Position numbers and translations under genes: made by a program
Shown: positions 12,437 to 12,930 of the stretch, one piece after another
Position numbering within the stretch: position 1 is the stretch's first letter
Layout of the letters: every line of letters starts with the position of its first letter
Notes under the pieces: model-generated
What the model saw: the letters and a program-made list of their open reading frames with translations, nothing else
Database searches by the model: none
What the model was told of the DNA's origin: nothing
Assembly: GCA_905203305.1 (NCBI GenBank)
Contig: CAJKVH010000002.1
Span: forward strand, 90,125 to 154,124
Length of the DNA: 64,000 nt
Source: an uncultured Eubacteriales bacterium
GTDB lineage: Bacteria; Bacillota; Clostridia; TANB77; CAG-508
Direction of reading: 5' to 3'

Positions 12437-12510
12437 ATTTTTACACCTCTTTTTATTTATATGCAATGAATAAATAATTATTACATCATTTTTATTTTCT
12501 GCTTACAGTT

Positions 12511-12544
12511 TTCGACAAATTTTTCATATTAAGTATTATATAAT
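12511..12544 (+). promoter_or_regulatory. promoter-like element TTCGACA…TATTATATAAT upstream of the second small ORF
   Basis: Homologous to 7529-7562. Another TTCGACA lies at 12857-12863. Confidence 0.4.
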
Positions 12545-12577
12545 ATTCTTATTTTCTTTTGAAAGGAGGTGATATTC

Positions 12578-12712
12578 TTGAAATCCCGAAAACACAAGAG
12601 AAAAAGTACTAATGTTATTGCGAAATTTCTACATAAAATTTTAGACTGTTTAAATATAATTTTGAAAATAGCATATGTACTAAAAGCTATTATAGACGTT
12701 TTTCGTCAATAG
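12578..12712 (+). CDS. 44-aa basic amphipathic small protein (paralogue of the 7594-7728 ORF), TTG start
   Basis: A gaaaggaggtga RBS sits 6 nt before the TTG. The product is LKSRKHKRKSTNVIAKFLHKILDCLNIILKIAYVLKAIIDVFRQ. A terminator follows. Confidence 0.5.
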   Translation: MKSRKHKRKSTNVIAKFLHKILDCLNIILKIAYVLKAIIDVFRQ

Positions 12713-12715
12713 CAA

Positions 12716-12746
12716 AAAACAGGCAATCACACACTTGCCTGTTTTT
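12716..12746 (+). terminator. rho-independent terminator
   Basis: aacaggcaa-tcacacac-ttgcctgtt followed by tttttttt. Confidence 0.6.
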
Positions 12747-12895
12747 TTTATTTTCTTTTTAGGTGAAAGTTTCTTGAATCCCGACTTTCATTAATATTAT
12801 ATCCATTTGTTTTATAAATTGCAATAGTTTTTCTTTATTTTTTCAAAATTTCGTTCGACATTTTTCTTGTATTTTTTCTTTTTATAGTTTTCGTC

Positions 12896-12930
12896 AATAG
12901 CCAAAAACAGGCAATCGCACTTGCCTGTTT
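12896..12930. terminator. second copy of the same terminator (degenerate repeat unit), abutting the 3' end of trmB
   Basis: tttcgtcaatagccaaaaacaggcaatcgcacttgcctgtttttt, nearly identical to 12700-12746 and including the last codons (…FRQ*) of a deleted ORF copy. Confidence 0.5.

Follow-up and report, generated by a model that had tools for sequence, protein, structure and literature searches.

Par-like loci are characterised by convergent promoters, a shared bidirectional terminator and direct repeats, termed DRa and DRb, that make the two transcripts complementary over the translation initiation region; in addition, the Shine-Dalgarno (SD) sequence and the 5' end are sequestered intramolecularly, the repeats are poorly conserved and so render paralogs orthogonal, and a YUNR U-turn in the loop of the terminator, which serves to initiate kissing, is missing from some homologs of par (PMC7472228). 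Here we examine a locus on a 64,000-nucleotide (nt) stretch of DNA from an uncultured Eubacteriales bacterium (contig CAJKVH010000002.1, positions 90,125 to 154,124; hereafter the window), in which a gene for a peptide of 44 amino acids (aa) is followed by repeats of parts of that gene. We consider it likely that positions 12511-12860 constitute a complete type I toxin-antitoxin (TA)-like module of par architecture, encoding a peptide of a new family and carrying a probable Spo0A input. To our knowledge, the only type I TA families characterised in Clostridia are those of Clostridioides difficile.

Architecture of the locus and its predicted antisense RNA

A first-pass annotation of the window had described an intact unit at 12511-12746, divergent from a cwlJ-like gene, and beyond it a gutted second copy keeping only its start and terminator. 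The first part of this description is borne out. TTCGACA, TATAAT, SD, a 44-aa open reading frame (ORF) and a terminator hairpin were all located, and the divergent arrangement is supported. The peptide is, as had been claimed, a second 44-aa family member with a TTG start, homologous to a paralog in the same window (57% identity over 40 aa, tblastn E 1e-9). Several coordinates had been off by 3-9 nt. The features of the module, hereafter locus 2, are as follows.

12511-12517, plus strand: box 1, TTCGACA (0A box TGTCGAA in reverse complement), 21 nt before the peptide -10
12539-12544, plus strand: -10 hexamer TATAAT of the peptide mRNA promoter, with a predicted transcription start site (TSS) at about 12551
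12551-12749, plus strand: predicted peptide mRNA of about 199 nt, from predicted promoter and terminator
12551-12560, plus strand: direct repeat a, copy 1, ATTTTCTTTT, the extreme mRNA 5' end
12565-12572, plus strand: SD, GGAGGTGA
12567-12589, plus strand: direct repeat b, copy 1, AGGTGATATTCTTGAAATCCCGA, comprising the 3' part of the SD, the TTG start and the first codons
12578-12712, plus strand: 44-aa ORF with TTG start, MKSRKHKRKSTNVIAKFLHKILDCLNIILKIAYVLKAIIDVFRQ
12714-12747, both strands: bidirectional intrinsic terminator with a 13-bp stem and flanking A-run and T-run, common to mRNA and predicted antisense RNA
12750-12759, plus strand: direct repeat a, copy 2, ATTTTCTTTT, predicted to be transcribed in antisense
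12761-12784, plus strand: direct repeat b, copy 2, aggtgaaagtttcttgaatcccga / AGGTGAAAGTTTCTTGAATCCCGA, the gene start said to have been kept
12789 to 12714, minus strand: predicted antisense small RNA (sRNA), antitoxin-like, 76 nt, with a 5' hairpin loop carrying the anti-start-codon, then the block complementary to the mRNA 5' end, then the terminator
12796-12824, minus strand: antisense promoter, TTGCAA (12824..12819), 17-nt spacer, TATAAT (12801..12796)
12851-12860, minus strand: box 2, lying 29 nt upstream of the antisense -35; TGTCGAACGA / TGTCGAACGATTTTT on the minus strand and TCGTTCGACA on the plus strand

The repeat of the gene start is real, though it lies at 12761-12784 and not, as had been proposed, at 12770-12800. 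Local alignment of mRNA nt 1-50 (12551-12600) with 12750-12800 gave a score of 31 against 14.5 +/- 2.4 for 500 dinucleotide shuffles, none of which scored as well (z 6.8), and the alignment includes the copy of repeat a, which had been missed. What did not hold is its reading as a relic. That 12750-12930 might be a tandem gene copy whose body was lost by deletion or recombination, leaving non-functional pieces, would agree with both repeated pieces being direct repeats of parts of the intact gene, but the pieces are not collinear with that gene: the intact unit runs TTCGACA, start, 3' end, and the downstream pieces run start repeat, promoter, TTCGACA, 3' end. The start repeat begins exactly at the mRNA +1 predicted from the -10, and the promoter sequence of locus 2 is not copied with it. 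Between box 2 and the repeated 3' end, 21 nt match nothing (12861-12887 against the unit, z 0.5, not above chance). The start repeat is bounded by the bidirectional terminator on one side and by a strong, near-consensus promoter directed back at it on the other, an arrangement found in 15 of 15 loci. We therefore regard decay of a second copy as highly improbable.

Since the start repeat is not collinear with the gene, begins at the mRNA +1 without a promoter and tracks its own start region in 15 loci, it is better explained otherwise, and very probably lies within an antisense RNA gene. The minus-strand sites TTGCAA-N17-TATAAT and TTGCAA-N16-TATAAT are the top-scoring promoter-like sites of locus 2 and its paralog. 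The predicted sRNA is complementary to the first ~10 nt of the mRNA, to a segment that begins with the GUGA of the SD, spans the start codon and extends into the first codons, and to the terminator hairpin. Duplexes of the two predicted RNAs (RNAduplex) reached -31.8 kcal/mol at locus 2 (z -5.3) and -33.6 kcal/mol at the paralog (z -8.4), with none of 300 dinucleotide shuffles as good and shuffled duplexes at about -11 to -15 kcal/mol. The window's two modules do not cross-pair (-8 and -12 kcal/mol, the latter for the locus 2 sRNA on the paralogous mRNA). Minimum free energy folds of single sequences pair the mRNA 5' end with the SD in three relatives (L013, L009 and L003) and the SD with sequence around the start codon in L004; the 5' end of W2 pairs with downstream codons.

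We propose that a ~200-nt mRNA would encode the 44-aa peptide, a cationic, amphipathic single helix, while a convergent antisense RNA of ~76 nt, driven by a near-consensus sigma-A promoter, would stop at the same bidirectional terminator. Pairing at the SD and start codon region should block ribosome binding, so that peptide would be made only when mRNA outruns sRNA.

The paralogous module, locus 1, shows the same order of elements:

7529-7891: module, its ORF 5 kb from that of locus 2
7529-7535: box 1
7557-7562: -10 of the peptide promoter
about 7569-7765: predicted mRNA, with the ORF at 7594-7728 and a bidirectional terminator at 7730-7764
about 7821 to 7730, minus strand: predicted antisense sRNA of about 92 nt
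7855..7850 and 7833..7828, minus strand: -35 and -10 of the antisense promoter, TTGCAA-N16-TATAAT
7885-7891: box 2
7569-7576 and 7787-7794: identical repeats
7587-7605 and 7799-7816: similar repeats

The similarity of the two loci, for which a formal alignment had been suggested as the check, lies well above chance (z 35 for the whole loci against dinucleotide shuffles).

Relatives were sought more widely. A word-seeded search returned two called homologs, and a profile search of 1.84 billion representatives returned 21 clusters, none in curated libraries, which define a new peptide family; a metagenome scan with the family alignment added only five loci. We fetched 28 loci (designated L001 to L028), and counts out of 15 below refer to the non-redundant family loci in different genomic contexts. 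All come from uncultured human-gut Clostridia. Every locus with enough downstream DNA shows a promoter for the ORF, a strong SD, the ORF itself with TTG or ATG as its start, and a bidirectional terminator, followed by two direct repeats and an inward-facing TTGCAA-like -N16-18- TATAAT promoter. Among the close loci, ORF promoter, SD, ORF, terminator and antisense promoter are shared by all ten and box 2 by nine. The antisense promoter is kept in 15/15 loci (TTGCAA, TTGATT, TTGCAT or TTGCTT, N16-18, TATAAT). At the sequence level, then, both the architecture and its spacings are conserved.

The pairing itself is also maintained. In 16 of 16 loci the 5' part of the sRNA pairs with nt 1-70 of its cognate mRNA at -21 to -46 kcal/mol (z -4.5 to -9.2; none of 200-300 shuffles as good). 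A 15x15 cross matrix ranks the cognate pair first in 15 of 15 rows and 14 of 15 columns, with means of -31.9 kcal/mol for cognate and -13.0 +/- 4.6 kcal/mol for non-cognate pairs. Block a differs in almost every locus (UAUCUCUA, AUUUUCUUUU, CCCUCU, AGACUUUAUU, AUUUCCGAU and AACUUCCGGC), but each version is matched in its own sRNA, with pairing beginning within nt 1-4 of the predicted mRNA. The paired sequences thus differ almost completely between loci, and both sides co-vary. Covariation was judged by cognate against non-cognate energies, as indels make a joint alignment of mRNA and sRNA arbitrary. As read from these sequences, the pattern fits selection for RNA-RNA pairing and not decay; the start repeat occurs in every family locus, even where the 3' fragment discussed below is lacking, and neutral decay cannot maintain such cognate tracking.

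The repeat of the last codons and terminator, the other piece of the supposed second copy, is of a different kind. It is real and slightly longer than had been described:

12882-12933, plus strand: truncated gene copy of 52 nt, matching 12690-12747: last 7 codons, less a deletion of 4 nt, and the terminator
12903-12932: fragment hairpin

Against 12690-12747 the fragment scores 76, compared with 17 +/- 2.2 by chance (z 27). To judge from its sequence, it is the only true gene fragment here. None of the related loci L001-L008 and L024-L028 has it. The fragment lies directly against the stop codon of trmB at 12932, its hairpin starting one base after the stop, and this hairpin probably now terminates trmB. 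The fragment may be what an internal deletion left of a second module, since complete modules are seen to duplicate in tandem in L019, or else the terminator may have been duplicated locally. In L019 (381-1100), two complete peptide/antisense modules stand one after the other (ORFs at ~405 and ~801), and box 1 of the second follows box 2 of the first by ~40 nt; the sister contig L020 has a single module at the same place, between rimP and recG. The suggestion of a tandem array undergoing decay thus retains one truncated copy and one case of whole-module duplication, both of which count in favour of relics, but it does not describe what the locus mainly is. A further candidate repeat, family D3 (12486-12518 against 12865-12897, 76%), was not above chance.

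TTCGACA boxes as putative Spo0A sites

Four copies of TTCGACA had been noticed in the two loci, in a genome where CG dinucleotides are rare. Both observations were confirmed: the copies start at 7529, 7885, 12511 and 12854, and the window (28% GC) holds 540 CG dinucleotides against 1204 expected. The second copy in locus 2 lies at 12854-12860 and not at 12857-12863. What had gone unnoticed is that TTCGACA, when reverse-complemented, gives the Spo0A box. This box, TGTCGAA, is the 7-bp Spo0A core in Bacillus subtilis and C. difficile, the protein contacting its G2, C4 and G5 (PMC3485338), and Spo0A sites can consist of two boxes 3 bp apart (PMC2731898). All four locus boxes match this core at 7/7 positions, the three contact bases included.

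It is the equivalent placement of TTCGACA in the two loci, not its count, that is non-random. The window contains five copies against 2.6 expected, and 13 of 100 shuffles reach five, which is not significant. However TTCGACA-N21-TATAAT occurs exactly twice on both strands of the window, each time at one of the two ORF promoters. The fifth copy, at 60066, was set aside as it lies inside an unrelated ORF (59860-60969, plus strand), which encodes an extremely acidic low-complexity protein of 369 aa with long D/E/S runs and a basic C-terminal part.

Across the family, box 1 ends exactly 21 nt before TATAAT in every locus but the most distant, L022, where box 1 is absent and an ordinary TTTACA-N17-TATAAT is found instead. 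The heptamer of box 1 is exact in 12 of 15 loci, the variants being TATGACA, TACGACA and TTCTACA. Box 2 is present in 12/15 loci, always 29 nt from the antisense -35 though the intervening sequence varies. Tandem boxes with a 3-bp spacer occur in seven loci (L001, L005, L006, L011, L015, L027 and L028), for example as TGTCGAAaaaAGTCGAA in the last four of these, and in the conservation profile the boxes stand out against variable flanks. At the normal -35 position (17 bp), the peptide promoter has a CAAATT-like sequence, which is no -35, and it has no extended -10. Because its -10 is perfect without a usable -35 or an extended -10, the promoter looks activator-dependent.

The Spo0A~P-dependent sigma-A promoters of spoIIG and spoIIE have a spacer of 22 or 21 bp and a 0A box overlapping the displaced -35. 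This spacer architecture was reportedly described by Satola in 1991, York in 1992, and Seredick & Spiegelman in 2007. We judge it fairly probable, from the motif and its position, that TTCGACA is a Spo0A input to the module. As such boxes are found both at the peptide promoter and upstream of the antisense promoter, the module is probably wired to the sporulation decision, and the lineage does have sporulation genes: spoIVA (2978-4345, 3 kb upstream of locus 1) and the cwlJ-like gene in the window, as well as spoIVA beside the module in L015.

TTCGACA could alternatively be an unusual -35-like element or the site of another regulator, in a module unrelated to sporulation. Its TCGACA matches TTGACA at five of six positions, and in both window loci a promoter scan joins it to a TATTAT 16-18 nt away, but most other loci lack TATTAT, while all outside L022 have TATAAT at exactly 21 nt, a spacing outside the sigma-A range. 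The insignificant count of the heptamer in the window, and the module of L022, which works without boxes, would also fit this alternative, as would the fact that spo0A was not found in these genomes, where no search for spo0A was made. It accounts less readily for the recurrence of the heptamer at a fixed 29 nt on the far side, where a -35 role is impossible, for the frequent pairing of this far-side box in the documented 3-bp Spo0A arrangement, or for a full core match that takes in the contact bases. We therefore find a role unconnected with Spo0A rather doubtful.

Other candidates were tried and rejected. The plain sigma-A promoter TCGACA-16/18-TATTAT from the scan was dropped on the grounds of conservation just given. 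A third plus-strand promoter reading from box 2 has no conserved -10 in other loci, with TATAGT at 22 nt seen only in the window. Consensus sequences for sigma-E, -F, -G, -H and -K, compared by eye, do not fit the ORF promoter, and CcpA cre and other motifs do not align with box 2.

The last codons of the ORF (12700-12712, GTT TTT CGT CAA TAG, encoding VFRQ) hold TTCGTCA, a 0A box of the TGNCGAA type with one mismatch, which is duplicated at 12888-12900. As a conserved box it was rejected: other loci end in ...TTT CAT TGA or ...TTT CAT TAA. Since these lack TTCGTCA, its presence here is probably coincidental.

The peptide, its possible role and its genomic surroundings

The pattern of substitutions identifies the ORF as a real gene under purifying selection. 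The ratio of non-synonymous to synonymous substitution rates (dN/dS) was 0.17-0.46 in 10 of 11 pairs, and differences are concentrated at third codon positions. The family core of 42-47 aa has a basic N-terminus followed by K(F/L)LHKIL..LKI..EI.KVLK(A/S)I..LF(H/R) at the C-terminus. For the locus 2 peptide, the AlphaFold2 model is a single helix spanning residues 7-43 (predicted local distance difference test score 82); this peptide has a net charge of +9 and a hydrophobic moment (muH) of 0.63, and across the family the charge is +4 to +9 and muH 0.61-0.70, with moderate hydrophobicity. By these measures the peptide is more like surface-active amphipathic peptides than like transmembrane type I toxins, and it may act at membranes. 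Toxicity is therefore suggested by analogy of architecture, and we lean only slightly towards it.

The same RNA architecture might serve a peptide that is not a toxin. It could be a regulatory or structural protein of a sporulation stage, for instance a membrane-surface helix like SpoVM, tuned by the antisense RNA and by Spo0A. The moderate hydrophobicity, which places the peptide nearer SpoVM, delta-lysin or melittin than the transmembrane type I toxins, is compatible with this, as are the purifying selection on the ORF, the presence of 0A boxes, and the chromosomal position of the loci next to housekeeping and sporulation genes, with none found in viral contigs or plasmids. However, three-site repression of the par type, a weak TTG start and, in several loci, a predicted fold of the mRNA 5' end onto the SD would be typical of genes with harmful products (PMC7472228). 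Moreover, the modules are multi-copy, scattered, tandemly duplicating and inserted between unrelated genes, as selfish or addiction modules are, and the two copies in this genome are orthogonal, as described for par paralogs. A purely regulatory or structural role thus appears unlikely to us.

Several observations weigh against a TA-like module under Spo0A. Firstly, the TSSs, the RNA ends and the expression of both RNAs are predictions from sequence. Secondly, the peptide has no strongly hydrophobic transmembrane segment: its maximum Kyte-Doolittle value over a 19-residue window is 0.8-1.9, while that of the type I toxins Fst, TisB, BsrG and PepA1 exceeds 2.2, and its charged end is N-terminal. 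Thirdly, the peptides have no meaningful match in Pfam (E<=10), NCBIfam or PHROGs, and an Rfam scan of 7000-13500 at E<=10 gave only sub-threshold, terminator-like sRNA matches. Fourthly, the family members are homologous, and their shared features are partly due to common descent. Box 2, finally, is absent in L003, L021 and L022, the last of which lacks box 1 as well, and the antisense architecture therefore does not depend on the boxes.

If both the toxic and the sporulation-linked parts of our reading apply, a more speculative scheme may be sketched, which we offer as a tentative possibility. Spo0A~P at high level would directly activate a membrane-active peptide, and a constitutive antisense RNA flanked by tandem 0A boxes would set the threshold, so that a domesticated switch could turn a graded signal into all-or-none growth arrest, commitment or lysis.

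The family appears to re-use the three-site RNA architecture of enterococcal par with an unrelated, highly cationic amphipathic peptide. Were Spo0A to bind the boxes, antisense-RNA control of a membrane-active peptide would be linked directly to the sporulation decision in abundant uncultured Clostridia of the human gut. No description of a link between a type I TA system and 0A boxes was found in the searchable literature; if our reading is true, no earlier type I TA-like system would be known to stand under direct Spo0A control, and the class of toxin would be unlike any described. A lesson for annotation may also be drawn: short direct repeats of a gene start, 3' of its terminator, are candidate antisense RNA genes and not debris.

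The modules occupy varied genomic contexts. The immediate neighbours of locus 2 are:

11989-12436, minus strand: cwlJ/sleB-like gene (Hydrolase_2), adjoining the peptide module
12932-13594, minus strand: trmB, on the far side of the module

Some family loci are syntenic with locus 2 (cwlJ, module, trmB), and L011 and L028 resemble locus 1, with asnS or lysS neighbours. Other contexts include a PPIase gene, ligA/toxN, spoIVA/asnS, rimP/recG and a response regulator/histidine kinase pair. As neither a scan of viral contigs nor a tblastn search of plasmids found relatives, an origin from phages or plasmids is not supported. In L013 and L014 (1103-1621) the family member lies beside a ToxN_toxin gene (type III TA), downstream of ligA, which could be a small island of RNA-antitoxin systems. 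In L015 and L016 (1-617) the module follows immediately after spoIVA.

The cwlJ/sleB-like gene itself has a +1 frameshift near 12385 that splits MAYSERELIARIIQCEAG from GEGDNGMKAVASVIMNRV..., which stands in the following frame (GCT GGT C GGA). L001, L005 and L007 have the same break, L003 has a different one (GAT AAC C GGA), and L006 shows a large internal deletion. Both breaks fall at a rare CGG codon next to GGAG-rich sequence. Either the gene is a pseudogene conserved within this clade, or the frameshift marks a recoding site. Elsewhere in the window are a reverse-transcriptase gene (RVT_1, 27081-28061, minus strand; group II intron, retron or similar) and a DDE transposase (22944-24278, plus strand). 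The ORFs beside them, at 28509-30110 and 21679-22707, had no Pfam match.

Comparison with described systems

The closest likeness is to par of the Enterococcus faecalis plasmid pAD1 (RNA I/fst and RNA II) and to other Fst/Ldr loci, including SprA1/SprA1AS of Staphylococcus aureus. As in these, predicted promoters converge, here in 15/15 loci; a bidirectional terminator is common to both predicted RNAs in all loci; and two direct repeats, transcribed in opposite directions, are complementary at the translation initiation region. The sizes also agree, with an mRNA of ~200 nt and an sRNA of tens of nt, as does the presence of non-cross-reacting paralogs in one genome, and single-sequence folds of some loci place the predicted mRNA 5' end on the SD, which may recall RNA I. 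The peptides, in contrast, differ. Fst/Ldr toxins have a hydrophobic domain at the N-terminus, a PXXXG(C) motif, a conserved Trp and an acidic or charged tail at the C-terminus, all of which are lacking in the peptides described here; these contain no Pro and consist of a basic N-terminus and a 30-residue amphipathic helix ending in LF(H/R). By sequence, the peptide falls outside the Fst/Ldr protein family. Unlike par, moreover, the family has one repeat that takes in the mRNA's very first nucleotides and 0A boxes at the promoter, and it is known only from chromosomes of uncultured gut Clostridia.

The C. difficile type I modules, among them CD2517.1-RCd8, CD2907.1-RCd9 and CD0956.2-RCd10, likewise combine an unannotated small peptide gene with a convergent cis-antisense RNA in Clostridia (PMC6563280). 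Their toxins, of 50-53 aa with a hydrophobic N-terminus and a Lys-rich C-terminus, are unlike the peptide described here. Degradation is suggested there by the long region over which antitoxin and mRNA overlap, whereas the predicted contacts in our loci are the terminator and two short, trans-type 5' blocks. The C. difficile modules also lie mostly in prophages or beside CRISPR arrays; the loci described here are not in phage or plasmid collections.

At the spoIIG and spoIIE promoters, Spo0A sits where sigma region 4 would bind, and additional boxes lie upstream. The peptide promoter shares with them a good -10, the lack of a -35 at 17 bp and a 0A box ~21-22 bp upstream. It differs in that its target is a tiny peptide gene under predicted antisense control, not a sporulation operon, and that its box is a perfect consensus, those of spoIIG and spoIIE being weak.

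As a molecule, the peptide is perhaps best compared with TisB (of TisB/IstR-1), delta-lysin and SpoVM, which are likewise short single helices of high hydrophobic moment in which Lys and acidic residues recur at regular intervals. It has no sequence relationship to any of these, and is longer and far more cationic, with a basic N-terminal extension.

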